The notes below the pieces were generated by a model that saw nothing but the letters and a program-made list of their open reading frames with translations, searched no databases and was not told the DNA's origin. Positions 4,158 through 57,083 of a DNA stretch of 64,000 bases are shown one piece after another (position 1 is the stretch's first letter; the number at the start of each line of letters is the position of its first letter). The stretch spans positions 1-64,000 of IMG/VR virus record IMGVR_UViG_3300035703_000045, one strand, 5' to 3'. This DNA is from a virus. The translations under genes and the position numbers were made by a program.

Positions 4158-4173
4158 TAATACAGTATAACAG

Positions 4174-4247
4174 TACCGGGTACGGGAATTGAACCCGTCT
4201 ACGAGTGTATATAAGACACCTTGCGTCAACCAGACGCACCACCCGGT
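4174..4247 (-). tRNA. tRNA-Ile, anticodon UAU (no encoded CCA)
   Basis: Cloverleaf on the minus strand: ACCGGGT acceptor; TGCG/CGCA D-stem; GGTGT-CTTATAT-ACACT anticodon arm; ACGGG-TTCAATT-CCCGT T-arm; ACCCGGT-A. Confidence 0.9.
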
Positions 4248-11601: not shown

Positions 11602-12048
11602 TTAGTTGTCCCACAATGTGGGCTGGTACCTCCCGCCAGACATCACAGTTATAGCATTTGCAATGGCTTGACCGTCTTCTCCACGAAGTTCTTGGAATTG
11701 GGGACCAAGGTGCTTCACATGCTTACCTACAAAGTGGCTAGGGATAACATAGGAGGTAGAACCAACGTCCTCTACGGCGTTTGTGTACGGATAAATACGA
11801 TTAGTTTTGTGCTCAGGAACAATTTTTCCGCCCCTGTTGTATGGGTCTTCCCAATCCTTTACCCGTGAAGTAGGAGCAGTGTCGGGTATTTCATAGGCGT
11901 GTACCGTGGCGATGCCCCCAGACTCCTCCGCTTCATCTAAACGATCCTTAGCGGCCTTACGAGTACCGGCATGAAAGGTCTCTTGATCGTACTCATGGGG
12001 TGGTTTGGACTCAAATGTCCCGTGGTAGACGATCTTAGATGCGCTCAT
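11602..12048 (-). CDS. ADP-ribosyltransferase-like protein, paralog family A
   Basis: VYHGT...FHAGTRKAAKDR...VHAYEIP...YTNAVEDVGSTSYV; resembles polyvalent-protein ART domains. Confidence 0.6.
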   Translation of the reverse strand: MSASKIVYHGTFESKPPHEYDQETFHAGTRKAAKDRLDEAEESGGIATVHAYEIPDTAPTSRVKDWEDPYNRGGKIVPEHKTNRIYPYTNAVEDVGSTSYVIPSHFVGKHVKHLGPQFQELRGEDGQAIANAITVMSGGRYQPTLWDN

Positions 12049-12051
12049 GGC

Positions 12052-12435
12052 TCAATCCTTGAACTGGTCGCCTAGATGTGCTCGTTTTTCCATCTCATTC
12101 ATACGCCAAGAACGTAATTGACGCTCATAATCAGTTGCATGGCTGTGGCGAGGACCAAAAGCGGCAGGAGTGATCTCATGGTCTCCCCGTCCCAGTGCCA
12201 TTGGGCCAGAGCCACGGGGGTCATCATGCAACCAACCTTCGGAAAATCCTAGATTTATGAATGGTCTAGGTCGTTCAATGCCTTCAACACCACCCACAAC
12301 CAATCCAGAGTCAGTTGGAGTCTCAAACCGATGGTGAGGAGTCTCTAATCTAAAGGAGCCAGAACGGATAGGAAGACCACATTCAGCACATGATGGCTGT
12401 ACTAACGTCGGATCTTCAATGGGGAAATCAGTCAT
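12052..12435 (-). CDS. Hypothetical protein with CxxC motif and C-terminal HLGDQF
   Basis: CAECGLPI...WLH...H; leaderless-type promoter upstream. Confidence 0.6.
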   Translation of the reverse strand: MTDFPIEDPTLVQPSCAECGLPIRSGSFRLETPHHRFETPTDSGLVVGGVEGIERPRPFINLGFSEGWLHDDPRGSGPMALGRGDHEITPAAFGPRHSHATDYERQLRSWRMNEMEKRAHLGDQFKD

Positions 12436-12448
12436 GGCTCAATAATAC
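12433..12448 (-). promoter_or_regulatory. Leaderless promoter GTATTATTGAGCC-ATG, copy 1
   Basis: -10 TATTAT lies 6 nt before the ATG; identical 16-mer at 12895-12910. Confidence 0.55.
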
Positions 12449-12462
12449 ATTAGATTGTAAGG

Positions 12463-12897
12463 TCAGGATAAAGACATACCCATATACTTGATTTTATTAT
12501 CATTTATGTCTTTTTTATGCATAATGTAAGAAATACTGCCCTTATCTTCAACTTGGTTACGATACTGAAGTACTTCTCCGGGTTTAACGTCACGAGGTCT
12601 TACTGGAACTGTTTCCCACAAAGTGGGTCCACTTTTATCGGCAAGTTCCATAACTATGCGTGAGTCTCGTTCTGAGTCCGGGTCATGATCATCATCAGCC
12701 CAGATTTCAGGACGAAGCATACTTACAGGGATTCGGTAATGATGAATAACATCTCTACCTGACTCCATCATACGGTCAATTGCGGCTTGTTCAGTACCAG
12801 CAAAAACATGAGGATGACCATATCGTACATGGGGAGCATTGTTATCCATTGATGCGTGGTACACATCAATAAACTGTGGTCCGTCAGGTATTGGCAT
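12463..12897 (-). CDS. ADP-ribosyltransferase-like protein, paralog family A
   Basis: VYHAS...VFAGTEQAAIDR...IHHYRIP...YRNQVEDKGSISYI. Confidence 0.55.
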   Translation of the reverse strand: MPIPDGPQFIDVYHASMDNNAPHVRYGHPHVFAGTEQAAIDRMMESGRDVIHHYRIPVSMLRPEIWADDDHDPDSERDSRIVMELADKSGPTLWETVPVRPRDVKPGEVLQYRNQVEDKGSISYIMHKKDINDNKIKYMGMSLS

Positions 12898-12910
12898 GGC
12901 TCAATAATAC
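12895..12910 (-). promoter_or_regulatory. Leaderless promoter GTATTATTGAGCC-ATG, copy 2
   Basis: Identical to 12433-12448; heads the minus-strand array. Confidence 0.55.
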
Positions 12911-13021
12911 CAGAATAGGGCTACATTTGACTTTTGGCAGGTTACCCCCATTGCAGAATAGGGCTATTGCGTAGTTTTGGTGTTATTGGGTGGTTGGCCC
13001 TGCACCATTCGCCGTGAAGCC

Positions 13022-13717
13022 TGTGGATTAACCATGGGGGGTGTGGATATCCCTGTGGATAATGCCGTTATCCACAGCCCTATCTGTGGATAAGTGGTGT
13101 AGTTATCCACATCCCTGTGGGCAATTCTGTGGATAAGTGGCTGTCAAGGGGCAATTGTGTGACATTTGTCATGTGGATAACCCCATTTCCTGTGGATAAC
13201 TATGTGGATAACCCCGAAACCCTGTGTATAACCCATTTCAGCCTGTGGATAAAGATACCCCAAGGGGTACCGTACGCTGGGGAAATGCAAAGTGGGCTTG
13301 TTCATTGACTTTCTGCACGATTTCAGTGCATTTGCCCTGCTCAGAGGCACATTTCGTTGTCCACAGCGATCTGTGGAAATCGCCGTAGAGCCGTTTGGAG
13401 GCTCTGGAGGGGGTGCAGTGCCCCGAAACGCTGGAGGCTGTCAGAGGGCGAAATAGGGGGCAATGAGAGGAAAGTGTCATAACGTGGCATCAGCCCTAGA
13501 AATGGGGCTATGGGTGAGACAAATGTCACAAGTGGGGGGTAGGTGCAGGTATTTGCACTATGCAATCAATCCCCCATCAACTATTTGTACTCTGCAATAG
13601 TTGCACCCTACAAGTATCCCCGTCGCATCCCCCCTATGACCCCCTCTGATATCCCATTCATATATATGTCCAATTTCCGATCCAGTTATCCACAGGGGGC
13701 GCAGAAAGTTATCCACA
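13022..13717. promoter_or_regulatory. DnaA-box cluster (oriC-like or datA-like locus)
   Basis: Perfect TTATCCACA/TGTGGATAA starting at 13054, 13068, 13085, 13103, 13128, 13172, 13191, 13203, 13244, 13686, 13709; TGTGTATAA at 13223; TTGTCCACA at 13357; near-matches at 13022, 13042, 13116, 13372. Confidence 0.88.
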
Positions 13718-14018
13718 GACCCCGAATCGTCCCTACAGTGGCAGTGTGAGGTTCGCAGGGGTCACCATCGTCGGTGGCATCTCAGCATGCGTCCCTACCT
13801 CACGGTGATTCCCACCCTGCAAGGTCGCCACGCTCTCCGATGTCGCAAGTTTGACAGTGCGAGCACGACCGATGCCCCAGCGGTGCGCTGGCACGGATGG
13901 GAAGTCACCCCGTGATTACGAAATGCTCCGAACTGGGGGGATCAGAAGTTGGGCGGTCTAGCACCCGTCACCCCTGAATGCATAGCCAGTCCACCGGAGT
14001 ACGCATGCCAATTCCAAC

Positions 14019-14056
14019 GGTCTCAGGTCTCAGGTCTCACAAGGCGCAAGGTCTCA
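14019..14056 (+). repeat. GGTCTCA heptamer x4 (three tandem, one spaced)
   Basis: Copies at 14019, 14026, 14033 and 14050. Confidence 0.8.
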
Positions 14057-14119
14057 TCGTCCGTCCCCCATGTATGTGGGGGGCGATGGTCGCAGGGGTT
14101 CGCCCCGTAAAGCGACACC

Positions 14120-14175
14120 GTTGGGAGATGCCCCACTAGGGGGCGATTCATGAGGTGCGATCCCTCCTCCCAACA
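14120..14175 (+). ncRNA. tRNA-like mini-element 1 (acceptor stem plus T-arm)
   Basis: GTTGGGAG...GAGG-TGCGATC-CCTC-CTCCCAAC-A with an internal GCCCC/GGGGC hairpin. Confidence 0.4.
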
Positions 14176-14195
14176 CTGCTGACATCCCGTCAGCC

Positions 14196-14212
14196 TGCGT
14201 TCCCGTAACGCA
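14196..14212. repeat. Intergenic palindrome, copy 1 (TGCGTTCCCGTAACGCA, one mismatch)
   Basis: Matches consensus TGCGTTAC-S-GTAACGCA; lies just upstream of the GAAAGGAC RBS. Confidence 0.8.
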
Positions 14213-14231
14213 CCAACCCGAAAGGACAGCA

Positions 14232-14873
14232 ATGAACACCACCGACAACCGAGGGGTTCTCACCCCCATCCACACCGCCTGCGAGATCGCCGAGTCGGCT
14301 CTCGCTGATGCCAACGAGGTGCTCGCCTGCCTGCCAGTGATCATGGATGCCAGCGAGGGTGTCAGCAATCGTGACATCGCCTACTGGGGCGTGAGCGAGG
14401 GCATGGTTCGCCGGTACAAGGTGCTCGCCACCATCATCGCCTTGGGCGACGACGAGGGTGCCCAGTGCGATCTCTTCACGGCTCGCAAGGTCGTGAACGC
14501 CACGTTCAAGGTCAAGGGCATCACCACCGAGATGATGAACGAGGTCATCGCTGAGAGCGACACCGTGTCGCAGGCGGTCGCTGGTCTTCAGGCTCTCGCC
14601 TTGGCTCCGGTCATGACCGAGGTGGACGAGGACGAGACGGACGGCGACGGCGACGGCGACGAGGATCAGACCCCCGACCCCAAGGACGACCTCGCCAAGA
14701 AGGTCACCAACTGGCTCACGGCTGGTCAGGGTTCGCTTCGCAAGGTCGTGGAGGCGCAGGGCAACGGGTTCGTCCTGACCGATGAGCAGGTCGTCGCTCT
14801 CACCACCCTGACCGACCTCGTCGCTCAGATCAACGCCAACGCCAACGCTCAGAAGACGGTCGTCGCCGTCTGA
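14232..14873 (+). CDS. Hypothetical protein, first gene of the plus-strand region
   Basis: GAAAGGAC RBS, strong GC3 bias, acidic DGDGD linker. Confidence 0.8.
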   Translation: MNTTDNRGVLTPIHTACEIAESALADANEVLACLPVIMDASEGVSNRDIAYWGVSEGMVRRYKVLATIIALGDDEGAQCDLFTARKVVNATFKVKGITTEMMNEVIAESDTVSQAVAGLQALALAPVMTEVDEDETDGDGDGDEDQTPDPKDDLAKKVTNWLTAGQGSLRKVVEAQGNGFVLTDEQVVALTTLTDLVAQINANANAQKTVVAV

Positions 14874-14880
14874 TGACACC

Positions 14881-14948
14881 GCCAGTAGCAGTGGGGATGC
14901 CACGGGGCATCAGCAATCCCACGGGGGGTTCAACTCCCCCCACTGGCA
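14881..14948 (+). ncRNA. tRNA-like mini-element 2 (acceptor stem plus T-arm, no D-arm)
   Basis: GCCAGT...GTGGG-GATGCC-ACGG-GGCATC...CCCAC-G-GGGGG-TTCAACT-CCCCC-C-ACTGGC-A. Confidence 0.5.
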
Positions 14949-14998
14949 CTGCTGGACGAGTGCACGGGCAACTGTGCGCTCGTCTAGTATCAACACCG

Positions 14999-15015
14999 TG
15001 CGTTACCGTAACGCA
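14999..15015. repeat. Intergenic palindrome, copy 2
   Basis: TGCGTTACCGTAACGCA upstream of the RBS of the gene at 15035. Confidence 0.85.
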
Positions 15016-15034
15016 CCCGAATGAAAGGACAGCC

Positions 15035-15874
15035 ATGAACCAGCCCAGCGAGAAGCAGATCGGATTCATCCGGTCTCTCGTCAACGAGCGTCGTCAGACG
15101 CTCACCGACCTCAAGCCCGAGTGGCTCACCACTCCGACCACGACCCGTGAGGCGAGCGACATCATCTCCCGACTGATGGATCTGCCCCGTGACCCGAAGG
15201 CTCCGACCGCCGAAGATGCCGACCTCGCCACCGACATGGCAATCCTCAAGAACGGACTGGGCGAATTGTCGGGGCGTGACTTCCACTTCGCCTCGTCGCT
15301 CGTCAAGCAGTACGAAGAGCGTGGCACCCTGTCCGACCGCCAACGGGCGTTCATCCCCAAGTTGTTCAAGGCGATGGACGGTGCTGACAAGCCCGTGCCC
15401 ATGGGCATCCACCGTGCCAGCGACGGCACCATCGTCCTCGTCTACCTGACCAAGAACGGTCGTCAGGCTGGCAAGGTGCTGGACGAGGGCACCTTCATCT
15501 ACGCCAGCGGTGTCATCGCCCGTTTCAACCTGTCCGACGAGACGGTGATCTCGCAGGCGCAGGCTCAGGAGTTCGGGCGCACCCACGGCTTCTGCGTGGC
15601 ATGTGCCAAGCCCCTCACCGACGACCGCTCGCTCGCATCGGGCTACGGCGCAGTGTGCGCTGGCAAGTACGGGTGGCACTACTGCACCCGTGAAGAGGCG
15701 GTGGCGATCTTGGGTCGCCCCGTCGCCTGCCAGCACCAGTGGGAGTTGGTCAAGACGGACACCAACTACTACAACCCCCAATTGGGGACGGGGTCGTGGA
15801 CGGAGCACTACGAGTGCGCCAACTGCGACGAGTGCAAGACGGTCAACATCGTCAACAACCGCTCGGGCGACTGA
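15035..15874 (+). CDS. DUF6011-like zinc-binding protein
   Basis: GFCVACAKPLTDDRSLASGYGAVCA; N-terminal SEKQIGFIRSL; start moved to the ATG after GAAAGGAC. Confidence 0.7.
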   Translation: MNQPSEKQIGFIRSLVNERRQTLTDLKPEWLTTPTTTREASDIISRLMDLPRDPKAPTAEDADLATDMAILKNGLGELSGRDFHFASSLVKQYEERGTLSDRQRAFIPKLFKAMDGADKPVPMGIHRASDGTIVLVYLTKNGRQAGKVLDEGTFIYASGVIARFNLSDETVISQAQAQEFGRTHGFCVACAKPLTDDRSLASGYGAVCAGKYGWHYCTREEAVAILGRPVACQHQWELVKTDTNYYNPQLGTGSWTEHYECANCDECKTVNIVNNRSGD

Positions 15875-15935
15875 TCAGGGGGTGGTATCGGGCAATCTGA
15901 TATCCATCCCATATCCCATCCGACTGCTGGGGGGT

Positions 15936-15952
15936 TGCGTTACCGTAACGCA
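15936..15952. repeat. Intergenic palindrome, copy 3
   Basis: TGCGTTACCGTAACGCA flanked by a G-run and a C-run. Confidence 0.85.
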
Positions 15953-16002
15953 CCCCCTAGCCTGACCCTTCCAACCAACCCAACCACCGAAAGGACACCA
16001 CC

Positions 16003-17568
16003 ATGTCGTTCATTGACGACTTCCTCAACGACCTCCAGCCCACCGCTGGACGACCCTCGCCCCAACCTGTGGGCGTGTCCAGCCTCACCGTCCCGACCCT
16101 GCACCTGCCCCTGATGGACTACCAGCAGGAGTCGGTGCAGTTCGCATTGACCCGTCGCAGTGCCTACCTCGCCCTTGACATGGGCTTGGGCAAGACGGCA
16201 GTCGCCATCGCCATCGCCACTGCTGTTGCCCAGCAGGAGCACCGTCAGGTGCTCATCGTGGTGCCCCCGTCGCTCCGTACCAACTGGGTGCGAGAGTTCG
16301 GGAAGTTCAGCCCCGACCTCAGCATCCACGTCTTTGACAAGTCGGCTCCCACGCCGACCATCAGGGTGCCTCGCATGGTCAACGGCTCCCCGTTGACGGT
16401 GGACGGCAAGAAGGTCATGGACGAGGTTCCCAACCCGAACCCTCCGACCCTCCCGACCAGCAACGTGCTCATCGTGGGCGACTCCACCGTGGAGGGCTGG
16501 GCGCACTGGTTGTCCACCTCTCCCCGTCCGGTCGGTGCGGTCATCGTTGATGAGGCGCATCGGATGAAGAATCCGAAGGCGTTGCGAACCAAGGCTCTCG
16601 CCCAACTCATCAAGTCCATGCCCAGCGACGGCGTGAGGATCATGATGTCGGGCACCCCTGCGCCCAACGGTCGTGCGTCGGAACTCGCCACCGCACTGGA
16701 ACTGGTGGACGGCTGGAGCACGGTCTCCAAGGGCACGTTCTGGCACTACTACTGCCCCCCTGCCAAGTTCGGTCGTGAGCATCTGCCCGAGCGTGTGCAG
16801 GAGTTGGGCGAGAAGTGCCGGAGCACGTTCATGCTCCGTCGCCTCCGTGGTGAGGTGCTGACCCTCCCGAACAAGGGACGCAGTGCCATCGCCGTGGAGG
16901 GCAAGGGCACCGCCGTGCGTAAGTACATCAGCGCAGAGGAAGACCTCATTGAATTCCTCAGCGGTGAGGGTCGCTCCACTGAGGGTGCCGGTCGTGCAGA
17001 AGCACTGGTGCGTCTCACCACTCTCCGTGCCCTCGCTGGTCAGGCGAAGGTGGACGGTGCGGTCACCCTCATCAAGGAGATGCTGGAGGACGACCCCTCG
17101 GGCATCCTCGTCATCGCAGAGCATCAGGCGGTCATGGACGCACTGGAGATGGCGTTCATCGGCAAGGCTGTCAGCATCCGTGGTGGCATGACCGACACGC
17201 AGAAGAGCGATGCCGTGGACATGTTCAACGGTGGTCACGCTCAGGTGCTCATCGGTCAGATCACCAGTGCAGGCGTGGGCTTCACCCTGCACGGTGGTGG
17301 TCGCAACCATCGGGTCGTCGTCGTGCAGTTGCCGTGGACTCCTGCTGAACTCCAGCAGGCAGAGGATCGCCTCCACCGCATCGGGCAGACGCACGATGTG
17401 GAGGTGACCATTGTGCTCACGCACATTGATGGCAAGTGGAGCATTGATGAGCGACTGTGGGGTCTCTTGGAGCAGAAGGCGTTCAGTGCCACCGCCATGA
17501 TCAACGGCGAGGGAGAGTTCCTCACGGACAGCGAAATCCGTGAGGGTCTGCTGGACACCTACCGCTGA
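16003..17568 (+). CDS. SNF2-family (SF2) helicase/translocase
   Basis: DMGLGKT, VVPPSLRTNW, DEAH, SGTP, QAEDRLHRIGQ. Confidence 0.92.
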   Translation: MSFIDDFLNDLQPTAGRPSPQPVGVSSLTVPTLHLPLMDYQQESVQFALTRRSAYLALDMGLGKTAVAIAIATAVAQQEHRQVLIVVPPSLRTNWVREFGKFSPDLSIHVFDKSAPTPTIRVPRMVNGSPLTVDGKKVMDEVPNPNPPTLPTSNVLIVGDSTVEGWAHWLSTSPRPVGAVIVDEAHRMKNPKALRTKALAQLIKSMPSDGVRIMMSGTPAPNGRASELATALELVDGWSTVSKGTFWHYYCPPAKFGREHLPERVQELGEKCRSTFMLRRLRGEVLTLPNKGRSAIAVEGKGTAVRKYISAEEDLIEFLSGEGRSTEGAGRAEALVRLTTLRALAGQAKVDGAVTLIKEMLEDDPSGILVIAEHQAVMDALEMAFIGKAVSIRGGMTDTQKSDAVDMFNGGHAQVLIGQITSAGVGFTLHGGGRNHRVVVVQLPWTPAELQQAEDRLHRIGQTHDVEVTIVLTHIDGKWSIDERLWGLLEQKAFSATAMINGEGEFLTDSEIREGLLDTYR

Positions 17569-17582
17569 CCCCACCCCGACCA

Positions 17583-17615
17583 CGGTGGGGTGCGTTACGG
17601 TAACGCACCCCACCG
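17583..17615. repeat. Intergenic palindrome, copy 4 (33-bp inverted repeat)
   Basis: CGGTGGGG-TGCGTTACGGTAACGCA-CCCCACCG. Confidence 0.9.
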
Positions 17616-17707
17616 ATATCCATATCAAAGGTTGCAATATCAGATTGCGACCCCTAGAATCCCAGTTACAAGTTCAGACCAACCCAACCACAAGAAAGGC
17701 AATCAAC

Positions 17708-18934
17708 ATGGCAACCATCCAAGAACTCGCTCTCGCCAAGCGACAGAACAAGCAGGCTCTCGCCACATCGGGAACGATGGAGGGCATGCGGTGCGACATC
17801 ATGTCGGACTCGCTCGTCCCCGACGGACAGCCCAACCAGCGCAAGGTCGCTGTCAAGTGGGAGGACGGCGAGGAGGGCTTCTACCTGCCCCGTCAGTTGG
17901 AGGTCGTGGAGCCGAAGACCCACGCCTTCATCCCGACCGCACAGCCCGTCCTCGTTGGACAGGCACAGCCCCAGCCCGTGGCGTTGTCCAGTGCCCCTGC
18001 CGTCGTGATGGGTGCGCTTCCCAGCCACCCCGACCACGACTTCTACGACGAGTTCCGTCCGTCGCCCGTCGTCAAGGAGATGCACATCGCCCGTCAGGCG
18101 ATGCTGGGGAGCGACCTCAACTCCACCGAGTACCTCATGGAGTGGTGGAACAAGCGTGACGAGTCGGGCTTCAGCAAGCCCCTCGCCCTCGTCGGTGACA
18201 CGCAGGCTGGCAAGACCATGGAGGTGGAGCGTCTCGCATTCGCCATCGCAGAGCGCATGGGTCTCAGCAAGCCCGTCCCCGTCTTCACGGTGATGGGTTC
18301 CAACGGCGTGACCGATCACGATCTGTTCGGCACCACTCGCACTGACCCCATGACGGGTCAGCCCGTGTTCATGCGTGGCACCGTGCAGATGGCTTGCGAG
18401 GCTCCCGTCGCCATCCTCTACTTGGATGAGGTCAACGCCATGGGTGGCAACGTCACCAGTGCCCTGCACCCCATCATTGACGGACGACACAAGTTCACCA
18501 ACTTGCGTCTCCCCGTCCGTACCGAGGCTGGCTACAGCCCCATGACCATCAACGTCTCCAAGGGTCTGTGGGTCATCGCCTCTTGGAACCCTGCCTACGC
18601 TGGCATGAACAAGACCAACGAGGCGTTCACCGCACGGTTCAAGGTGCTGGAGTGGAACTACGACTCCGCACTGGAAGACCACATCATCGGCTCGCCTGCG
18701 CTCCGCATGCTGGCTGACCAGTTGCGGAACCTGCGCTCCAAGCGCATCCTCAACACGCCGGTCGGTATCACCGACCTCAAGGACATCAAGTGGGAGGCGC
18801 ACAAGTTCGGTGCCAAGGTCGCACTGGATTCCTTCTTGGGCAAGTTCATCAGCGAGGCTGAGAAGATGGCGGTCTCGTCGGCAATGACCGACGGCTCCAT
18901 CTATCAAACCCTCCAGTTGGAGGTGAACTCCTGA
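17708..18934 (+). CDS. MoxR/CbbQ-like AAA+ ATPase
   Basis: Walker A GDTQAGKT, Walker B LYLDEVN, ASWNPAYAG...NEAFTARF; start at the ATG after GAAAGG. Confidence 0.85.
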   Translation: MATIQELALAKRQNKQALATSGTMEGMRCDIMSDSLVPDGQPNQRKVAVKWEDGEEGFYLPRQLEVVEPKTHAFIPTAQPVLVGQAQPQPVALSSAPAVVMGALPSHPDHDFYDEFRPSPVVKEMHIARQAMLGSDLNSTEYLMEWWNKRDESGFSKPLALVGDTQAGKTMEVERLAFAIAERMGLSKPVPVFTVMGSNGVTDHDLFGTTRTDPMTGQPVFMRGTVQMACEAPVAILYLDEVNAMGGNVTSALHPIIDGRHKFTNLRLPVRTEAGYSPMTINVSKGLWVIASWNPAYAGMNKTNEAFTARFKVLEWNYDSALEDHIIGSPALRMLADQLRNLRSKRILNTPVGITDLKDIKWEAHKFGAKVALDSFLGKFISEAEKMAVSSAMTDGSIYQTLQLEVNS

Positions 18935-18939
18935 CAGCC

Positions 18940-18974
18940 TGAGGTGGGTGCGTTACGGTAACGCACCCACCTCA
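18940..18974. repeat. Intergenic palindrome, copy 5 (35-bp inverted repeat)
   Basis: TGAGGTGGG-TGCGTTACGGTAACGCA-CCCACCTCA. Confidence 0.9.
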
Positions 18975-19074
18975 TACCCCACCCATACCGATATCAACTG
19001 CAAGCAGAACCATCCACTTGCATTTGAACTTCATCACACCCACCCCGTACACTCATCAACAGAGAGGACACATC

Positions 19075-21156
19075 ATGACGAAGAAGCAGTTGACCCCCGA
19101 AGAGATGATGGAGCGCAACGTGCGTCGGCAGATGCAGAGGCACGGTGCCAAGATCCGTGAGCGCATCAAGGCTGACACCGAACTGCACGAAGAGCAGAAG
19201 CGTCAAGAGGCGCAGAAACTCATCGCACAGATGGAGGCGAGTGCCAACCGAGGCACGGTGGAGCACAGCGACTACGACAAGGCGCAGTGGCTGTGCGACA
19301 GCATCAAGCAGATCACCACGGTCGTGGCTCGCTCGTTTGGTCAAGACCAGCCCATCGTGCACAAGTACAGCAACATGATTGCTGACCGCATGTTGATGGC
19401 GTTCACTGACCTGAAGGTGGTGACCATCGGCATCAAGCCGTCGCTCGTTCAATTCTCCAGCGACGAAGAAGTGCGGCGCACCACTGCTGTGATCAAGGGT
19501 GCCACCTACCATGAGTTCGCCCACTGCATGTGGACGAAGCATCTCATCAAGGACTACTTCCCGATTGACGATAACGCCCACAAGAACTTCAAGGCGTGGA
19601 ACCTCTTGGAGGACGGACGCATTGAGGCTCTGCTCATCGTGAAGTCTCCGATCATCAAGAAGTACCTTCTTCCGATGATGTGGGACATCGTCGTGAACGT
19701 CGGTGACGAGAGCACTGATGAGTACGACAGGGTGTACCGAATCGCACGGGCAGTACCTTTCTTGCTTGTTCGCACCTACATTCCAAAGGGCATCCAGCGT
19801 CAGGCTGTCATGAACGTGTGGAAGGTACTGGATCTCTCAAACAGAGACACCCCAGCAACTCGTCAGAATGTCAAGAACATCATCAGCGAGATGCTGTCAG
19901 TGAGCCGTGGGTACAACGCCTGCACGGACATGAATGACCAAATCCCGTTCATCGTTCGGTTCAGCGAGTTGCTCAACGAGTGGGGACAACTGTTCGGTCG
20001 GGTCTTCACCAATGACAGTGCTGGTGACCCCAGTGGTCGTACTGGTGAATCATCGTCGGTGGAATCGGTGGAGTCCCCGTCCGAGTGGGACGAGTCCGAG
20101 TGGGACAACAGCACACCTGCACCCAGCACCTCCGATGGTGACAGCAAGCCGGAGAACTCAGCCAAGGGTGAGTCGCACAAGCCATCTGATATGGATATGG
20201 AATCGGACGATGACTCCGACTTCAGCGTCAAGCCCAGCGCAGACGACAAGGACGACAAGCCCAGCGACTCCGACGACAAGGAGAACGATGGCTCCAAGGA
20301 CGATGAGCAATCGCAGGGGAAGTCATCCGACCACGGTGACGAGTCCAACAACAATCCGCACGAAGAGTTGAACAAGGCTGTCAACGAAGCCGTGAGTGAC
20401 TACGAGTTGTCGGCGGTCATGAAGCACTGGGGTGACACCCTCCGCACTGGGTTGCCCTCCTACACGCAACCTCTCCCCACCGATAGCAAAGTGACCGATG
20501 ACGGAGAGATGGTTCGCATCGGCATGATCAATGCACTGGACACGGTGGTCATGACCGCCAGCCCGTCATGGAAGTACCGCATGGAGACTGGTGCCGTGCT
20601 GGATGTGGATGCCTTCACCAACCGTGAGGTGGGTGACGATGCCTACTGGATGGACAAGGACGACAGTGGTGAGCGTGGTCACGACCTCGCCATCAGCATC
20701 CTGCTGGACTGCTCAGGCTCCATGATGGGCACATACTCCGCACTGGGGTCGTGTGCATACGGAATCCATAGCGCATCACAGTCGCTTGGTATCCCGTGCA
20801 CGACGAGCATCTTCGGGACGCACCAGTACATCCTGTGGGGCGAGGACGAGACCCCGACTCCAGTGATCATGCCCGACCTTGGTGGTACTCAGGTTCGGGA
20901 ATGCTTGGAGTCGCTCCCGACTCAACGAGCAGGCAAGTCACGGCAGATCGTGTTCATCCTCACCGATGGTGATTGGGAGTACGACATCCCCACGCTCCTG
21001 CCCTACATGGATGAGGACGTGCACATCGTTCTGATCGGATTGGGGATGCCCTTGGCAAAGTTGACTCAGAAGTCCCCCAGCCGTGCGATCACCATCAAGT
21101 CGGTGATTGATCTGCCGAAGATGGTTGAGCAGGTCATCGGAGACTTCTTCCGGTGA
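19075..21156 (+). CDS. VWA-domain protein with N-terminal HExxH region (CobT-like architecture, MoxR partner)
   Basis: YHEFAH...WNLLEDGRIE; acidic linker; MIDAS motif LLDCSGSM...GGT...ILTDG. Confidence 0.85.
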   Translation: MTKKQLTPEEMMERNVRRQMQRHGAKIRERIKADTELHEEQKRQEAQKLIAQMEASANRGTVEHSDYDKAQWLCDSIKQITTVVARSFGQDQPIVHKYSNMIADRMLMAFTDLKVVTIGIKPSLVQFSSDEEVRRTTAVIKGATYHEFAHCMWTKHLIKDYFPIDDNAHKNFKAWNLLEDGRIEALLIVKSPIIKKYLLPMMWDIVVNVGDESTDEYDRVYRIARAVPFLLVRTYIPKGIQRQAVMNVWKVLDLSNRDTPATRQNVKNIISEMLSVSRGYNACTDMNDQIPFIVRFSELLNEWGQLFGRVFTNDSAGDPSGRTGESSSVESVESPSEWDESEWDNSTPAPSTSDGDSKPENSAKGESHKPSDMDMESDDDSDFSVKPSADDKDDKPSDSDDKENDGSKDDEQSQGKSSDHGDESNNNPHEELNKAVNEAVSDYELSAVMKHWGDTLRTGLPSYTQPLPTDSKVTDDGEMVRIGMINALDTVVMTASPSWKYRMETGAVLDVDAFTNREVGDDAYWMDKDDSGERGHDLAISILLDCSGSMMGTYSALGSCAYGIHSASQSLGIPCTTSIFGTHQYILWGEDETPTPVIMPDLGGTQVRECLESLPTQRAGKSRQIVFILTDGDWEYDIPTLLPYMDEDVHIVLIGLGMPLAKLTQKSPSRAITIKSVIDLPKMVEQVIGDFFR

Positions 21157-21252
21157 CCTGCCACCCATTTGATATCCAACCCATATCCATCCATATGGAC
21201 GGCACCGCATGCAACTGTGGTGCCGTCCAACTGGACGGTCACTGAAACAGTG

Positions 21253-21269
21253 TGCGTTACGGTAACGCA
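21253..21269. repeat. Intergenic palindrome, copy 6
   Basis: TGCGTTACGGTAACGCA, preceded by a GCAA-capped hairpin at about 21196-21229. Confidence 0.85.
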
Positions 21270-21333
21270 CTGAGTTGCAAGACACGACAAGAACAGATAG
21301 TTTGAAATCAAACACAACTAGGAAGGCACAACG

Positions 21334-21642
21334 ATGACGAACACAACGACAGAAGTAACATCCGACATGCTGTGGGACATGAACTTTGCGACCGGCGAAG
21401 ACATCAAGTTCATCTCTTACAGCGGTCGTGCGATGTACGGCAAGACCTGCTTTGGTGTGGTGCTCCCCTGCGCTGAGGATGCCGTGCTGTGGGCACTCAA
21501 CCTGAGCGCAGAAGAGTTCGCTCCGATCCTGAACAACCCTCGGATTGACAGCATGGGTCGCAACATCGTGGTCTACTTCCCGAACCTCATCATCAGCGAC
21601 GAGACGCTCGCTGAGTGGTCGGACGACGAGGACGAGGACTGA
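21334..21642 (+). CDS. Hypothetical phage protein
   Basis: YSGRAMYGKTCFGV...DSMGRNIVVYFP; AGGAAGG RBS. Confidence 0.7.
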   Translation: MTNTTTEVTSDMLWDMNFATGEDIKFISYSGRAMYGKTCFGVVLPCAEDAVLWALNLSAEEFAPILNNPRIDSMGRNIVVYFPNLIISDETLAEWSDDEDED

Positions 21643-21647
21643 CACAC

Positions 21648-21965
21648 ATGTACACATTCTTCTACGACGACAACGACAACCACACAGAAGGGAACACCAC
21701 CGTGAAGTACAACGAGAAGGCACTGGACTACGCCATCGGACACTTCCTGTCCGACTGGGACAAGAACATCCCCAACGACAAGTTGCTGGAGATGATGTAC
21801 TCAGGTGAGTACACAGTCAACGAGGATGGCTTGTCCTCCACGGAGACTGAGGATGCGAACGAGTACATCCTGCCGTGGGAGCCATTTGAGTACATGCCCC
21901 TCAACTGGATCGCAGAGCGCATTGAGATGATGGCGTGGTCTCTCACTGGGGAGGACTTCCGGTGA
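21648..21965 (+). CDS. Hypothetical protein
   Basis: Packed acidic ORF. Confidence 0.6.
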   Translation: MYTFFYDDNDNHTEGNTTVKYNEKALDYAIGHFLSDWDKNIPNDKLLEMMYSGEYTVNEDGLSSTETEDANEYILPWEPFEYMPLNWIAERIEMMAWSLTGEDFR

Positions 21966-22348
21966 GCGAGTACAGGACAACAATGACCCCTGCCATGAAG
22001 GAGTTTCTCATGAACGACTTTCTGAAGACCAAGAAGAAGGATGGGTCGGGACGCTGGCACATTGAGTACATCGTCCATGTGTATGTGGACGCTGACTCCC
22101 GTGAAGAAGCATTGGAGAAGGGTGCATACCACCTCCATATGCTGGAGATGTCAGGCAACCTCTCGGATCACTGCGAACTGCTGGCAGACGAGATTGAGGA
22201 TGACTCCACTCCCGACTGCTGGGAACCCGACGAGGATGGGAACATCATGTGCTTGGACTGCATGAACCCATACCCCTCCAACGAGATCGTCACCGATCCA
22301 CGCTGGAACGACCCACGGTGCGAAGAGTGCCACTACAAGAGCAAGTGA
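21962..22348 (+). CDS. Hypothetical protein with C-terminal CxxC...CxxC
   Basis: GTGA overlap with the upstream stop. Confidence 0.6.
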   Translation: MSEYRTTMTPAMKEFLMNDFLKTKKKDGSGRWHIEYIVHVYVDADSREEALEKGAYHLHMLEMSGNLSDHCELLADEIEDDSTPDCWEPDEDGNIMCLDCMNPYPSNEIVTDPRWNDPRCEECHYKSK

Positions 22349-28087: not shown

Positions 28088-28308
28088 CGAACATGGCTGT
28101 TGATACCCCGTATCATGAGTTCCTGTACCAAGTACAGCAGATATGGTTGGAGGGTTCGTGGCGGTATGGACAGGCTTTGTTCAACTGCCTTCACACATTC
28201 CGACCCGACTTGGCTGACAAGGTACGGACAACCCCTCTTGATCCTTTCTACAAAGACCACTCTGATATCAACCCCGAACTGTGGGTATTCCTGATGGAGA
28301 ATTGGTGA
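28084..28308 (+). CDS. Hypothetical phage protein
   Basis: WRYGQALFNCL...RPDLA...DPFY. Confidence 0.65.
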   Translation: MTNMAVDTPYHEFLYQVQQIWLEGSWRYGQALFNCLHTFRPDLADKVRTTPLDPFYKDHSDINPELWVFLMENW

Positions 28309-28727
28309 TGCAGACATTCGTACCTCTTGGATCAGACTTTGCTGGCAATGCCAAAGTGCTGGACATGAAGCGACTTGGTAAACAGCGTGTGGAGGGTCTT
28401 CAGATCCTGCGTACTCTGACAGGTGTTGGCAAAGGCTGGGAGAACCACCCCATCGTGAAGATGTGGAAAGGTCATGAGTATGTACTCGGCTTGTACACCA
28501 TTGCGATGTGTGATGAATGGATATCCAAGGGGTACAAAGATACCTGTAGAGATCAGATCATATCAATAATGGAGTCGTTTGATATGCCCAAGGTGACACC
28601 CATGTGGCTTGAGGATCCCGAACTCAAACTATCTCACAAGTCCAACCTCATTCGGAAGATGCCCGACCACTACGGGAAACTGTGGGCTGGTGTGCCTAAC
28701 GATCTTCCGTACAAATGGGTTGCCTAG
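28308..28727 (+). CDS. Pyrimidine-dimer DNA glycosylase-like protein (MSMEG_6728 family)
   Basis: MQTFVP...LDMKRLGKQRVEGLQIL...WENHPIVKMWKG...SHKSNLIRKMPDHY. Confidence 0.85.
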   Translation: MQTFVPLGSDFAGNAKVLDMKRLGKQRVEGLQILRTLTGVGKGWENHPIVKMWKGHEYVLGLYTIAMCDEWISKGYKDTCRDQIISIMESFDMPKVTPMWLEDPELKLSHKSNLIRKMPDHYGKLWAGVPNDLPYKWVA

Positions 28728-29116
28728 AGTAATACCCCTTCTCGCAGACGGGACTTCCCCCACCCGTCTGTCTCTGTCCACACAGCCCTGTGAATGCCGT
28801 TCTCCATCAGGAGTTCTTGGCAGTTGGGACACGGTTTTGCCATCCCGATATAACCGCTCTTGGTGATGCGAGCAACGTAGATAGTGGCTCCTCTGACATC
28901 CCCAGCACGGCGTATGGCTACCTGTTCGGCGTGGTATGACACGCCATTGAGTTCAACCTGAGACGGGTCGTTTCGGTACCGGTTAAACCCGACACCAAGC
29001 ACCCTCCCCCCACCGACAATGACGGCTCCTACACGCCATTTGTCGTGGGGGGCGTTGGATGCCTGAGCGGTGGCTACGGCGAGCCACCTGAAGTCAGAGA
29101 CGCTCAGTGCTGGCAT
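28724..29116 (-). CDS. Cytidine/dCMP deaminase-family protein
   Basis: RVGAVIV...GFN...HAE...AKPCPNC. Confidence 0.85.
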   Translation of the reverse strand: MPALSVSDFRWLAVATAQASNAPHDKWRVGAVIVGGGRVLGVGFNRYRNDPSQVELNGVSYHAEQVAIRRAGDVRGATIYVARITKSGYIGMAKPCPNCQELLMENGIHRAVWTETDGWGKSRLREGVLL

Positions 29117-29540
29117 TTGCGATCAAGTGCTTGGCTTTGGCAACCGACACACCCAGCACCTCAGCAAAGTGCTGAATGAACGGAGTCTTGTGGTTCTTCC
29201 CTCGTACCTTGCGGAGATCCTTGATGATCGTGGACACCGGCATGGTGTGATCAAGGTTGTTGATATCCAACTTGCGACGTTCACGGGGAACCACGCCACC
29301 CCAAATGCCTTGGTGCTCTCCGTTCTCAAGAGCGAACATCAGACAATCACGGCGCACCGTGCAGGTGGCGCAGGTGAGACGGGAGGTAGCAATCTGATAG
29401 GAGCATGCGGAGTGGTTGTCCTTGGTCGGAAAGAACGTGTCGGGGTTGACCCCTGCACACGCTGAGTGCTTGCGCCACTCCCCATTTCCCCAGTTTCGTA
29501 GCATCGGTAGTTCAATCAGGTTTGGATTCTGTTCGTTCAT
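29094..29540 (-). CDS. whiB: WhiB-family transcription factor
   Basis: W...SAC...TFFP...CATCTVRRDCL...GIWGG...ERR. Confidence 0.9.
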   Translation of the reverse strand: MNEQNPNLIELPMLRNWGNGEWRKHSACAGVNPDTFFPTKDNHSACSYQIATSRLTCATCTVRRDCLMFALENGEHQGIWGGVVPRERRKLDINNLDHTMPVSTIIKDLRKVRGKNHKTPFIQHFAEVLGVSVAKAKHLIANASTERL

Positions 29541-31772: not shown

Positions 31773-32153
31773 CTACTTACTTGACATCCTAAACACGACA
31801 TCATCAAGTTTGTAACTCTCTCCTTGTCGTGGAATAGAGTCAATTGATATCGGTAACGATATGTCCTTGGAACAACACGCAGAACAAGAACAACCGAATC
31901 GTTTACTTTCAATAGTTCCATGAGGAACACGATTTGGGTTTCGTCTTTCTTGCGGGGTTAGCCCACCCCAGCATCCCCACACTTCTTCGTTCTTTGTTCC
32001 GTATTCCAAACAGTCTTTCCACACTGGGCAGGAATAGCAAAGAGACTTACCAATCCGGTAATAGGCATTCTGATTTGGTGCTTCCAAAGGTGGGAACCAA
32101 AAGTCGGAATGAAGACCTTTACAAAGAGCGTCTTGCATCCAATCTAAATTCAT
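31773..32153 (-). CDS. whiB: WhiB-family transcription factor with extra C-terminal Cys cluster
   Basis: WMQDALC...FWFP...CYSCPVWKDCL...GCWGGLTPQERR; HGT...GCSCSAC. Confidence 0.9.
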   Translation of the reverse strand: MNLDWMQDALCKGLHSDFWFPPLEAPNQNAYYRIGKSLCYSCPVWKDCLEYGTKNEEVWGCWGGLTPQERRNPNRVPHGTIESKRFGCSCSACCSKDISLPISIDSIPRQGESYKLDDVVFRMSSK

Positions 32154-51837: not shown

Positions 51838-52753
51838 TTTGAATCCACGGTGGCATGACGGTCGCTGTTTTAAGACCGTTCTCTATTTCGTCGTCAGTCA
51901 TATCCCCGATATCCTTTGCTGAGGTTCCAGCATAGTTCCACCACAGCAACCCTTTTCGTGGACGATTCATGAATTTGTACAACTTCTTACTGGATTCAAT
52001 ACCAGCCTCGTCGTTGTCCATAGCCACAATAACACGATCAGCGACATGGGTTACTAAGTGCATCTGGTCTTTTGAGACCTGTGCTCCGAAGGTGGCTAAA
52101 GCCTGTGGCTTTTCAAAGACCCCAGCAAATCGGATGATGTCCAATGGGGACTCCACCAAGATGGCTGTGCGTGAGCGAAAGCGTTCTATACCAAACAGGG
52201 TTTTTCCCTTTTCTACGCCTACGGGGAAGTTGCGTACCCACCCAGTCTTCTTTTCCTGCCAGCCATCTAAACGACCAGTGGCAGACATGATCGGGATCGC
52301 CCACGCCTTTGACTTGGGATTCCAACGGACTCCATATCGGTGTACCAAGTCTGGGTCTAGGTTCTTGAAGGCACACTTGGCATCGGACACACGGTCAAAC
52401 CGAAAGAAAGCATCCCGATCCACATAGACAGTTTCCTCACCCTCTTTGGGAAGGGTGAGATTATTGAAGTTCGTGGAAACCAAGAACTTCTGTATTTCAA
52501 GACCGGCTTCAATCCCAGTCAGTTCTGCCAGTAGTGACGAGAGTGTTCCACGGGCACCGCATGAAAAGCAGATCCATAGACCAGTGTTGGCGTTGATACT
52601 CCAAGAAGGTGAGCGGTCTTCACGCCCCACAGTGCGTATGTGTACTGGGCATTTGCCGGTGATTTCCCGATCACCGACACGCTTTAGTTCTACTCCTACG
52701 GACTGTAGGACTTCTGCGAGGTTAGTCGTATGAGGGGTTGATGTTTGAGTCAT
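51830..52753 (-). CDS. DNA primase (CHC2 zinc finger plus TOPRIM)
   Basis: CPVH...PSW...CFSCG; LVESPLD; AMDNDEAG; KDIGD. Confidence 0.9.
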   Translation of the reverse strand: MTQTSTPHTTNLAEVLQSVGVELKRVGDREITGKCPVHIRTVGREDRSPSWSINANTGLWICFSCGARGTLSSLLAELTGIEAGLEIQKFLVSTNFNNLTLPKEGEETVYVDRDAFFRFDRVSDAKCAFKNLDPDLVHRYGVRWNPKSKAWAIPIMSATGRLDGWQEKKTGWVRNFPVGVEKGKTLFGIERFRSRTAILVESPLDIIRFAGVFEKPQALATFGAQVSKDQMHLVTHVADRVIVAMDNDEAGIESSKKLYKFMNRPRKGLLWWNYAGTSAKDIGDMTDDEIENGLKTATVMPPWIQNV

Positions 52754-55034: not shown

Positions 55035-56261
55035 TTAGTTACGATTGATGCGTCGGTAGTTGTACACAGCAGAAACTATGCTATCTGCCGCTGGTCTAAT
55101 GCTCTGTTTTGTTGTTGACAGCAATTCTTTTGGCAATGGAATATCAGATAATGTTGAATGTATATCTGATACATCAACATCTTCCTCATCCAAATGCCAG
55201 CGAACCAGTGAGTTTAAAGCACTCAACATGGGCTGGAAGTTCGGGGTATCAAACGATGTGTCAATGATACTAGCCACCAACTCAGGGTAGCGGTAGGAGG
55301 CATCTAATCCACGGAGGATGACAGCCTGCTGGATCACACTGTCAAAGGCATCATTCCACGGAAGGTTGATACCTGACCGGTCAAAGTCTGACATCAGGAA
55401 CCGCAGGGTCACTCCCATGTCGTCATCCAACGTGACTGGCATGTTCTCCATGAGACTGGTCTGTACTGACTTGGTGCAAAACATGAGCACGGGGGAGTCG
55501 GCTTTGATGAACCGTTCGTTGGTGAAAAACCGGTCAATCATTCCCTTGATGGTGGGTCGGGTAAGACCACCGTCAAGTAGTAACCGGATGTTGCGCCGAA
55601 GGATGTTCATGTCCTGAAAGGTGTACGAGCAGTTCATGACAGACCGTGGATGGTAGACGAAGTAGTTCGTCAGGTCGTTGACCTCTGGGCGTGGCTTCCG
55701 TTTGGTTTCTGACTGCTTGGTCTGTTCAGGTTTGTCTGGGTCTGCCCCAATGATCATGTCGCCCTCGGCCCTCTTTAATAATTCTCTATGTATCTCTTTA
55801 TCTATTATTACTCTATGGTTTTCGTTTTGCTGGTCACACGCTGGAGTTTCTTTGATTTCAATAGGGTCATGGGTGACCCTATCAACCTCATTGGATAGGG
55901 TCATGGGTGACCCTATAATAGGGTCATGGGTGACCCCATATGGGGTCATGGGTGACCCTATTACCTTCTGTGTATAATGCACTTTATATACCGAAGATGC
56001 GGGGCGTGGTCGTCGTACAATATTAATGATGTGGTGTTGTTCCAACCACTTCAATGACCGCTTAACAGTCTCTTTGGAAGTGCGTGATTTGATGGCGATG
56101 TCGGAAATGGAAGCGTCAATCTCTTTGGTGTTGAGGCTCATCATGGACACCAACGTGACCAGAATCTGCAAGTCTCGGGGTTGCCCGTGCTCGTTGATGT
56201 AGTCCACGGACCACTCAGGAACAGCAATAAATCTACCCCCGAAGACATTACTGGTTCCCAT
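55035..56261 (-). CDS. HTH replication initiator (lambda O-like organisation)
   Basis: N-terminal wHTH SISDIA...SKETVKRSLKWLE; internal DNA repeats; directly upstream of the loader, helicase and primase. Confidence 0.7.
   Translation of the reverse strand: MGTSNVFGGRFIAVPEWSVDYINEHGQPRDLQILVTLVSMMSLNTKEIDASISDIAIKSRTSKETVKRSLKWLEQHHIINIVRRPRPASSVYKVHYTQKVIGSPMTPYGVTHDPIIGSPMTLSNEVDRVTHDPIEIKETPACDQQNENHRVIIDKEIHRELLKRAEGDMIIGADPDKPEQTKQSETKRKPRPEVNDLTNYFVYHPRSVMNCSYTFQDMNILRRNIRLLLDGGLTRPTIKGMIDRFFTNERFIKADSPVLMFCTKSVQTSLMENMPVTLDDDMGVTLRFLMSDFDRSGINLPWNDAFDSVIQQAVILRGLDASYRYPELVASIIDTSFDTPNFQPMLSALNSLVRWHLDEEDVDVSDIHSTLSDIPLPKELLSTTKQSIRPAADSIVSAVYNYRRINRN
55861..55961. repeat. Four iteron-like repeats, putative phage replication origin
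   Basis: Core GGGTCATGGGTGACCC at 55864, 55898, 55921 and 55943; AT-rich tract at about 55770-55830. Confidence 0.8.
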
Positions 56262-56349
56262 GAGGTGGAGGACGTTATCACCTTTTTTGTCCCTCTGCAA
56301 CACACGTCACAGAGTGATATTCTGTAATTTGCCGAGCACTGGAGACAAA

Positions 56350-56792: not shown

Positions 56793-57083
56793 GTGGCAAG
56801 TAAAAAAGATCCCCGTCTTGAACGGGCAGGTGTTGATGGTTACAACAAACCAAAGCGTACGCCTGACCACCCAACTAAGTCGCACATTGTTGTTGCCAAA
56901 GAAGGCGACAAGGTAAAGACCATCCGCTTTGGTGAACAGGGTGCCGAGACTGCCGGTAAGCCCAAGGCTGGAGAGTCTGAGCGCATGAAAGATAAACGTG
57001 CGTCGTTCAAGGCTCGTCACGCTAAAAACATTGCCAAGGGAAAGATGTCAGCCGCCTACTGGGCTAACAAGGAGAAGTGGTGA
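56793..57083 (+). CDS. Small basic phage protein
   Basis: GYNKPKRTP.HPTKSH.V...IRFG.QG...SFKARH...SAAYWA. Confidence 0.7.
   Translation: MASKKDPRLERAGVDGYNKPKRTPDHPTKSHIVVAKEGDKVKTIRFGEQGAETAGKPKAGESERMKDKRASFKARHAKNIAKGKMSAAYWANKEKW

Follow-up and report, generated by a model that had tools for sequence, protein, structure and literature searches.

DnaA boxes, the binding sites of the bacterial replication initiator DnaA, also occur where no chromosome starts replicating. The E. coli dnaA and nrdAB promoters are regulated by DnaA, which likewise stimulates the pR promoter of phage lambda. Chromosomal box clusters in Bacillus subtilis bind DnaA stably, and the datA locus lowers initiation potential; datA carries an IHF-binding site between its essential boxes, a feature that probably does not apply to the locus described here. 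That locus is a dense array of DnaA boxes in the phage genome recorded as IMGVR_UViG_3300035703_000045. The analyzed stretch, referred to below as the window, comprises the first 64 kb (64,000 nucleotides) of this 93,044-bp IMG/VR contig, which IMG/VR classes as "linear."

Several phage proteins interfere with the initiation of host replication; for example, YfdR and YqaH of cryptic prophages bind or counteract DnaA. In phage lambda, the replication origin sits inside gene O, with gene P next to it. At the locus described here, phage DNA rather than a phage protein would engage host DnaA. Box clusters outside oriC have been described for datA and B. subtilis (PMC5742627, PMC2533591). T5-like phages carry about 8 DnaA boxes, arranged in pairs with 3-bp gaps, in the noncoding injection-stop (iss) region, where their function is speculative; replication genes and origins of their own lie elsewhere in these genomes (bioRxiv 10.1101/866236). 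The array is tentatively interpreted here as a docking platform by which host DnaA would gate divergent early transcription.

A DnaA-box array with oriC-like spacing and no unwinding element

All 11 perfect copies of TTATCCACA in the window lie between positions 13054 and 13717. In shuffled windows, 0.72 perfect boxes are expected (standard deviation, 0.79; maximum, 3), and none of 100 shuffles contained 11 or more. Four one-mismatch boxes within 13022 to 13717 bring the array to 15 boxes in ∼700 bp, and two additional sites with two mismatches are located at ∼13116 and ∼13372. One of the one-mismatch boxes, TTGTCCACA, has the form usual in high-GC actinobacteria. The main cluster holds 12 of the 15 boxes and includes both same-orientation pairs (13042/13054 and 13191/13203), with starts 12 bp apart and hence a 3-bp gap, and inverted pairs (13054/13068 and 13085/13103). 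Across the 93-kb genome, a single further perfect box was found, at 85274, giving 12 in all. The array is a real, selected, and nonrandom cluster of predicted host-DnaA sites, and we strongly infer from the sequence that it docks host DnaA.

An earlier note on the window, made from its letters, had recognized these sites as DnaA boxes by their consensus, counted 11 perfect boxes and four near matches, and described the packing of most of them into 13022 to 13252 in both orientations, exactly at a switch in coding strand and GC content. All of this agrees with the recount: the array lies between divergent genes that start at 12897 and 14232, and the GC content steps from ∼0.43 to ∼0.63 at the array. 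The same note had likened the layout to actinobacterial oriC, and this likeness extends to the spacing of six real oriCs.

For that comparison, a triple-box pattern was located once each in 21 of 301 sampled Actinomycetota genomes, and the locus lies directly downstream of dnaA, the position of oriC, in all five genomes tested. The six host oriCs (L270 to L275) contain 12 to 16 perfect boxes per locus, or 15 to 19 boxes in ∼450 bp when one-mismatch boxes are included. The phage arrays share with them the favored spacings of 12 and 20 bp between boxes of the same orientation and of 14 and 17 bp between boxes of opposite orientation. Two particular box pairs are also common to both, TGTGGATAA-gtggNgtNg-TTATCCACA, which is inverted, and TGTGGATAT-CC(C)-TGTGGATAA. 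In contrast to the array, the host oriCs adjoin dnaA, and their boxes end in a terminal pair that is followed by a GC cluster, (TTA)n trio-like repeats, and a 78 to 88% AT stretch, beyond which dnaN begins. Similarity to the sampled host oriCs stops at ∼33 bp, with no homology outside the boxes, so there is no sign of recent capture of any of them.

The unwinding module of the host origins has no counterpart at the array. Both stability and AT tests showed that an AT-rich unwinding element is absent beside the terminal boxes. The least stable 40-mer of the control region (positions 13649 to 13688) is not a credible unwinding element, and neither strand of 12898 to 14231 has four or more trio-like triplets in a row. 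The AT excess is 0.16 to 0.22 in the four arrays of the phage family (0.215 in the phage under study) versus 0.36 to 0.44 in the six host oriCs. The array possesses the box cluster and the spacing of an oriC-type origin and lacks its unwinding element and trios; it also has the makeup of a datA-type locus, namely, a cluster of high-affinity boxes far from the origin and without an unwinding element. GC skew was weak, did not single out the array, and located no origin.

The phage has a predicted origin of its own, 42 kb from the array. An unbiased scan for clustered 9-mers identified four tandem 22-bp palindromes inside a putative initiator gene, followed downstream by genes for a helicase loader, a helicase, and a primase, much as the earlier note, which had placed an initiator/iteron/DnaC/DnaB module at 52 to 56 kb, had proposed. 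A 40-mer at 55776 is 80% AT and lies at the 0.01 percentile of genome stability. The 422-amino-acid product of the putative initiator gene has no Pfam match at default settings; a weak HTH_Crp_2 match spans 56010 to 56123, and the homologs in two relatives (G002 and G004) show the same weak match near their iterons. The iteron motif cluster recurs in G002, G003, G004, G006, and G007, including genomes without the array. By its layout, the 55.9-kb locus is the conserved, lambda-like predicted origin of the family. Because this origin is conserved, the array is accessory.

Distribution of the array and its operator sites in the phage family

The first 50 bases of the contig are repeated at 92796, giving a direct terminal overlap of 249 bp (1 to 249 and 92796 to 93044); the genome is therefore complete, with ∼92.8 kb of unique sequence. 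It encodes baseplate J-like and P2-I-like proteins, a family A DNA polymerase (PolA), and two SNF2 helicases. Cultured relatives are distant: the best PolA matches are Streptomyces phages, at 35% identity, and a DNA search with 12000 to 15000 against cultured phages gave no match. Searches of viral contigs with single proteins, namely, both flanking gene products and the SNF2 protein, returned no relatives; uncultured relatives of 87 to 99 kb were found through PolA, with 60 to 78% identity. The family comparison rests on the phage under study (G000) and eight complete relatives (G001 to G008).

Two WhiB-family genes are present in each of the five family phages tested; among 14 control genomes, only Corynebacterium matched this family. 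When an alignment of the family's WhiB2 copies was compared with genome contigs, the matches were Actinomycetota genomes and one short contig of a "Ca. Fonsibacter" metagenome-assembled genome (MAG); WhiB1 alone matched no genome contig. Because of the WhiB genes, the host phylum is Actinomycetota, which bears out the actinobacterial host assumed in the earlier note. The locus was found in sequencing runs of 12 studies, all of them metagenomes of freshwater, lake, or subsurface origin; together with the WhiB genes, these habitats define a family of freshwater actinobacteriophages. The MAG contig (L230; RFXN01000128.1, 2.5 kb, "Candidatus Fonsibacter lacus") is the closest WhiB match, at 48%, and is probably a contig of the same phage family that was mis-binned into an alphaproteobacterial MAG. 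No tyrosine integrase, sigma factor, or DnaA DNA-binding domain was found in the five family phages tested, and dnaN is absent from the entire G000 genome, so that the lack of dnaA and dnaN reported for the window holds for the whole genome.

Counting perfect and one-mismatch boxes together, there are 15 in G000, 8 in G004, 7 in G001, and 4 in G002, always in the homologous control region. The array thus recurs at the same position in three of the eight complete relatives, and no boxes were found in G003, G005, G006, G007, and G008 (five of the nine complete family genomes). Two genomes that are 81 to 83% complete (G009 and G010) and five partial ones (50 to 73%) were left out of these counts; they hold no perfect box and may exclude the control region. 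PolA phylogeny places the four array-bearing phages in one well-supported clade of seven. The other three members, G003, G006, and G007, lack the array and make up a single lineage of nearly identical phages; G005 and G008 constitute the sister clade. The PolA proteins of the array-bearing relatives diverge from that of G000 by ∼26 to 29%. The array is old and maintained, yet accessory, with a fluid number and orientation of boxes.

The array is also conserved among strains. It was found on contigs from four independent studies, three of which extend into the high-GC module to the right of the control region. One strain contig (X1), possibly from the source sample, spans 12021 to 15500 without a difference, and the same junctions are present in strains from other studies (X2, 13141 to 15500; X3, 12911 to 13634 and 13629 to 14420; X7, 12911 to 13456). 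The array block differs at 2 of 724 bp in X3 and at 1 of 546 bp in X7 (0.2 to 0.3%) versus 1 to 2.4% in the flanks and is thus 5 to 7 times better conserved. A difference in X2, T>G at 13227, converts the near-box TGTGTATAA into the perfect box TGTGGATAA. G001 has homologs of the same left-hand genes on one side of its array and homologs of the DUF6011 and SNF2 genes on the other. These data bear on a scenario raised in the earlier note, in which assembly joined the phage to a fragment of a host oriC. Such a chimera would account for the abrupt change in GC content and for the oriC-like look of the array, but its probability is negligible: the scenario is ruled out by the independent contigs with the same junctions and by the synteny in G001, and it is further contradicted by the GC rise into the right-hand module in every family genome examined, by the absence of dnaA and dnaN, and by the limit of ∼33 bp on the likeness to sampled host oriCs.

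The boxes share the control region with two other kinds of sites. A family-specific 11-mer, AATAGG[GT]CTA[TC] (here called P), is nearly confined to the control region in eight of the nine family genomes, with two or three copies per genome, usually just upstream of the ribosome-binding site (RBS) of a leftward gene. P was considered as a −10 element on either strand, and this assignment was dropped as inconsistent between genomes. The other kind is a palindrome of the type TGTGA-N6-TCACA, which is the consensus of CRP proteins and of the actinobacterial GlxR (PMC10187061, PMC7999487). The control region holds five of the nine such sites of the G001 genome, four of seven in G005, and four of eight in G008.

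DnaA boxes and CRP-type palindromes alternate at homologous positions between genomes. For example, G000 and G001 carry a DnaA box immediately to the left of the conserved block AACCATGGGGG, and the CRP-type palindrome TGTGACGNNCGTCAC takes its place in G005 and G008. G002 and G004 share the identical order P, 6 bp, box, 9 bp, box, and their boxes lie 3 to 9 bp from P. The third P copy (P3) is flanked by two DnaA-box pairs in G004 and has a TGTGA-N6-TCACA-type palindrome within 1 to 3 bp in G000 and G005. In G003, G006, and G007 (e.g., L195:14150-14215), the palindrome TAACCGGTTA lies between P copies and there are no DnaA boxes; this palindrome is a putative third type of operator at the same position. 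The control region fits assembly from what appear to be interchangeable sites for host regulators.

A composite of the same two elements was observed outside the window, at 85253 to 85282, where the only perfect CRP-type palindrome of the genome, TGTGACTAAAGTCACA, lies 5 bp from the only perfect box outside the array, inside the 5′ end of a small hydrophobic open reading frame (ORF; 84953 to 85306, minus strand). A degenerate composite is present in the array itself (palindrome at 13158 to 13173, box at 13172). The composite at 85253 to 85282 is missing from the homologous place in the eight relatives and is specific to G000.

Possible roles of the array: regulation, titration, initiation, or anchoring

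If the array is the docking platform that we tentatively favor, host DnaA would assemble on boxes that lie beside the P 11-mer and the CRP-type palindromes, and the docked DnaA would gate both divergent early operons according to the replication and growth state of the host. Since neither a sigma factor nor a DnaA-like domain was found, the early promoters must use the host RNA polymerase and would be readable by host factors. The sites, their conservation and synteny, and the positional swaps are observed; we infer that DnaA binds, that P has a promoter role, and in which direction regulation would run. The boxes appear to hold operator positions, which favors regulation, and the four boxes of G002 favor it as well, being enough for regulation and few for a sponge. 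In G000, the array has grown to ∼15 boxes, and because of this expansion, titration of DnaA is a probable by-product that may add to the effect.

Several observations weigh against gating by docked DnaA. P is not recognizable as a sigma-70 or actinobacterial −10 element, and a scan of the control region for sigma-70 promoters and terminators returned no site, so it is conservation that carries the claim of boxes beside a promoter. Fifteen boxes at spacings of 12, 14, 17, and 20 bp far exceed the needs of known DnaA-regulated promoters; in number, they look more like a device for assembling a large DnaA oligomer, such as a decoy or an origin. The CRP-type palindromes could be bound by a phage protein instead. 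Moreover, the orientation of the boxes relative to the flanking genes differs between G000 and G001 on the one hand and G002 and G004 on the other, which a fixed geometry would not predict.

The earlier note had considered two functions, a sponge and a first-round origin. As a sponge, the array would be a decoy origin that sequesters DnaA or, in the manner of datA, promotes its inactivation, amplifies with phage copies, and shuts off host initiation. This is possible but not probable, and the more specific proposal of an oriC decoy that, stripped of its unwinding element, drains DnaA and arrests host initiation is rather unlikely. The 11 perfect and four near-perfect consensus boxes belong to the highest-affinity class, their spacing matches that of actinobacterial oriCs in the absence of an unwinding element and trios, and the phage encodes a complete replication set (initiator, loader, helicase, primase, and PolA). 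The box arithmetic is favorable, too. Twelve small actinobacterial genomes, which stand in for the host and may be incomplete, contain 5 to 26 perfect boxes each, about the level of a reversed-pattern control, with at most 2 to 3 at one locus among the matches listed; with its 12 perfect boxes, one phage genome would therefore add ∼50 to 240% of a chromosome's boxes before replicating. Chromosomal clusters that titrate or inactivate DnaA are known from datA (PMC5742627) and B. subtilis (PMC2533591). However, one relative has only 4 boxes and five of nine genomes have none, and a pure sponge needs neither the fixed register with P nor the swaps with CRP-type sites. The benefit of blocking new host initiations is also not obvious for a probably lytic phage of slow-growing hosts, and a literature search turned up no DNA-encoded DnaA sponge in a phage, which is no proof of nonexistence.

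The use of the array as the primary replication origin is unlikely, because the unwinding module was tested for and is absent and because the phage has a separate, conserved origin. Nor is it probable that the array is a second origin driven by host DnaA, used for instance in a first round of replication before the phage initiator is made, with opening by transcription or at the patch at 13649 to 13688. The number and grammar of the boxes are oriC-like, the site is a point of divergent transcription, the box pair 13686/13709 adjoins the DNA that is least stable locally, and the phage DnaC-like loader and DnaB could be recruited. Yet this least stable 40-mer is only 68% AT, ranks at the 1.5th percentile, and, judged by the host layout, is on the wrong side of the boxes of the plus strand; there are no trios, the AT excess falls short of that in host oriCs, box orientation and number are not conserved, and the GC skew is weak. 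The iteron origin, with its 80% AT flank, is retained even in genomes without the array. With the array missing from five of nine genomes, most of which keep the iteron origin, the first-round proposal is weakened.

Still less probable is an anchor of the T5 type, in which largely membrane-associated DnaA would grab the entering DNA or act as a tether, so that injection pauses or the genome is held in position. The pairs 13042/13054 and 13191/13203, with their 3-bp gaps, do lie in noncoding DNA bordering early genes. On the other side, the T5 model is itself a hypothesis, no T5 homology was seen (the best PolA matches being the Streptomyces phages), and the 249-bp overlap of the contig comes from assembly, so that it does not give the physical ends. 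The lack of the array in five of nine relatives would be odd for an essential entry step. Between regulation and titration, the evidence is mixed: the positional logic, the CRP-type swaps, and the 4-box array of G002 favor regulation by docked DnaA, and the expansion to 15 consensus boxes at oriC-like spacings and the box counts favor a decoy. Both could operate together. Regulation, an option beyond the two that had been proposed, is what the comparison of the family genomes suggests first.

Neighboring features and comparison with known systems

The coordinates of the array, its operator sites, and other features of the window are listed in Table 1.

Table 1. Positions of array elements, operator sites, and genes in the 64-kb window
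Feature	Position	Strand	Basis or remark
Divergent early control region, 1.33 kb, without credible ORFs	12898..14231	.	ORF maps; homologous to control regions of relatives
First leftward gene, 144 amino acids, no known family (no matches)	12463..12897	-	Swappable cassette
First rightward gene, 213 amino acids, no known family	14232..14873	+	Opens high-GC early module
Main DnaA-box cluster	13022..13252	10 boxes -, 2 boxes +	12 boxes: 9 perfect TTATCCACA, 3 one-mismatch
One-mismatch box TAATCCACA	13022	-	Box scan
One-mismatch box ATATCCACA	13042	-	Box scan
Near-box TTATACACA	13223..13231	-	One mismatch; perfect box in strain X2
One-mismatch box TTGTCCACA	13357..13365	+	Box scan
Perfect-box pair, 13686 and 13709	13686..13717	+	Oriented toward main cluster
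Least stable 40-mer of control region	13649..13688	.	68% AT; 1.5th genome percentile
P1	12914..12924	+	17 bp upstream of start codon of left gene
P2	12957..12967	+	Aligns in all six control regions compared
P3 (AATGGGGCTAT)	13501..13511	+	CRP-type palindrome 3 bp further on
Conserved block AACCATGGGGG	13030..13040	+	Cross-genome alignment
Degenerate CRP-type palindrome TGTGACATTTGTCATG	13158..13173	.	8/10 specified positions; abuts box at 13172; inverted repeat I1
CRP-type palindrome TGAGACAAATGTCACA	13515..13530	.	9/10 specified positions of TGTGA-N6-TCACA
Palindrome TGCGTTAC-C/G-GTAACGCA	14196-14214, 14999-15017, 15936-15954, 17589-17607, 18947-18965, 21251-21269		
WhiB-family gene 1	29094..29540	-	73 bits versus cutoff of 23.6
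WhiB-family gene 2	31773..32153	-	Profile match; alignment of family copies used for genome search
DnaG-type primase	51830-52753	-	Downstream of initiator
DnaB-type helicase	52722-53987	-	Downstream of initiator
IstB/DnaC-like loader	54418-55026	-	Downstream of initiator
Putative initiator, 422 amino acids, contains iterons	55035..56303	-	Weak winged-helix (HTH_Crp_2-like) match near N terminus
Predicted own origin: four tandem 22-bp palindromes ATAGGGTCA-TGGG-TGACCCTAT	55861..55961	.	Unbiased clustered 9-mer scan; AT-rich flanks

To the left of the control region, strain X2 has the segment 12449 to 12911, which contains the first leftward gene, exchanged for 451 unrelated letters, and the X3 and X7 contigs have loose ends at the same two breakpoints. 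The right breakpoint, at 12911, lies 3 bp from a P motif, and for this reason, P may bound swappable gene cassettes. To the right, the gene starting at 14232 is followed by DUF6011, SNF2 helicase, and AAA_5 genes. This rightward early module (14000 to 22000) is 10 to 20 GC points above the rest of the genome in each family member examined, and the GC contrast is accordingly a family trait rather than an assembly artifact. A near-perfect palindrome of 18 to 19 bp, TGCGTTAC-C/G-GTAACGCA, occurs in six copies restricted to this module, at least two of them ∼17 nucleotides ahead of an RBS with its start codon (gaaaggacagc-ATG). Judging from the copy at 14999, the DUF6011 gene appears to start near 15036. 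The set looks like putative phage-specific operators of the "stoperator" type, and the palindrome in this form was not found in the eight relatives. Rfam returned chance matches only, both for the whole window at the gathering level and for the control region at an E value of ≤1. The phage also carries a tRNA-Ile gene with the anticodon TAT (4173 to 4247, minus strand), a DenV-like pyrimidine-dimer DNA glycosylase gene (28281 to 28727, plus strand), and a ferritin/Dps-like gene (56260 to 56784, plus strand).

Arrays of this kind are not confined to the family. Triple-box arrays are present in at least 120 other viral contigs, and the phenomenon is therefore general; 92 of those 120 arrays lie outside long ORFs. 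None of the 120 array-bearing viral loci matched WhiB, but the loci are short pieces and are uninformative on hosts. A lysine-rich 96-amino-acid ORF of the phage under study (56793 to 57083, plus strand), which belongs to no Pfam family, has copies with 51 to 86% identity in eight otherwise unrelated viral contigs with DnaA-box arrays, ∼4.5 to 7 kb from the arrays.

The present analysis adds a direct comparison of the array with actual actinobacterial oriCs, the finding that the array lacks the unwinding module in a phage with a conserved origin of its own, and the series of presence, absence, and site swaps within one phage family. Because its members have 0, 4, 7, 8, or 15 boxes at one position, exchange boxes for CRP-type sites there, possess an independent origin, and follow oriC grammar without the melting element, the family amounts to an unusually clean natural experiment. 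If DnaA and CRP bind as predicted, the early control regions of phages that infect slow-growing freshwater actinobacteria would be built from the operators of host master regulators, and these phages would read the replication and energy states of their hosts. If the sponge proposal is true, it would represent a new form of host takeover, by DNA sequence alone and without a protein inhibitor.

Among known systems, the lambda origin resembles the predicted origin of the phage in having four iterons in the initiator gene, AT-rich DNA beside them, and a helicase-loader gene next; the comparison is one of layout and not of lambda O sequence. Unlike those of lambda, the iterons here are 22-bp perfect palindromes, and the phage brings its own DnaB, primase, and PolA. 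The iss region of T5 resembles the array as a noncoding, multibox locus beside early genes, with 3-bp pairs (which G004 also has) and with the replication genes elsewhere. It differs in having 8 boxes versus up to 15 here, and all T5-like phages keep theirs, whereas several relatives in this family are without; furthermore, T5-like phages are siphoviruses of enterobacteria, and the phage described here is an unrelated, myovirus-like actinophage. The datA and B. subtilis clusters share with the array consensus boxes without an unwinding element, and those of B. subtilis are likewise intergenic. In contrast to these chromosomal clusters, the array resides on a multiplying phage genome and is interleaved with a phage-specific 11-mer and CRP-type sites. 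Compared with DnaA-regulated promoters, which have 1 to 5 boxes, the arrays of the family have 4 to 15, and the promoter here is putative; the likeness lies in boxes placed beside promoter-region elements, where the host initiator would serve as a transcription factor.

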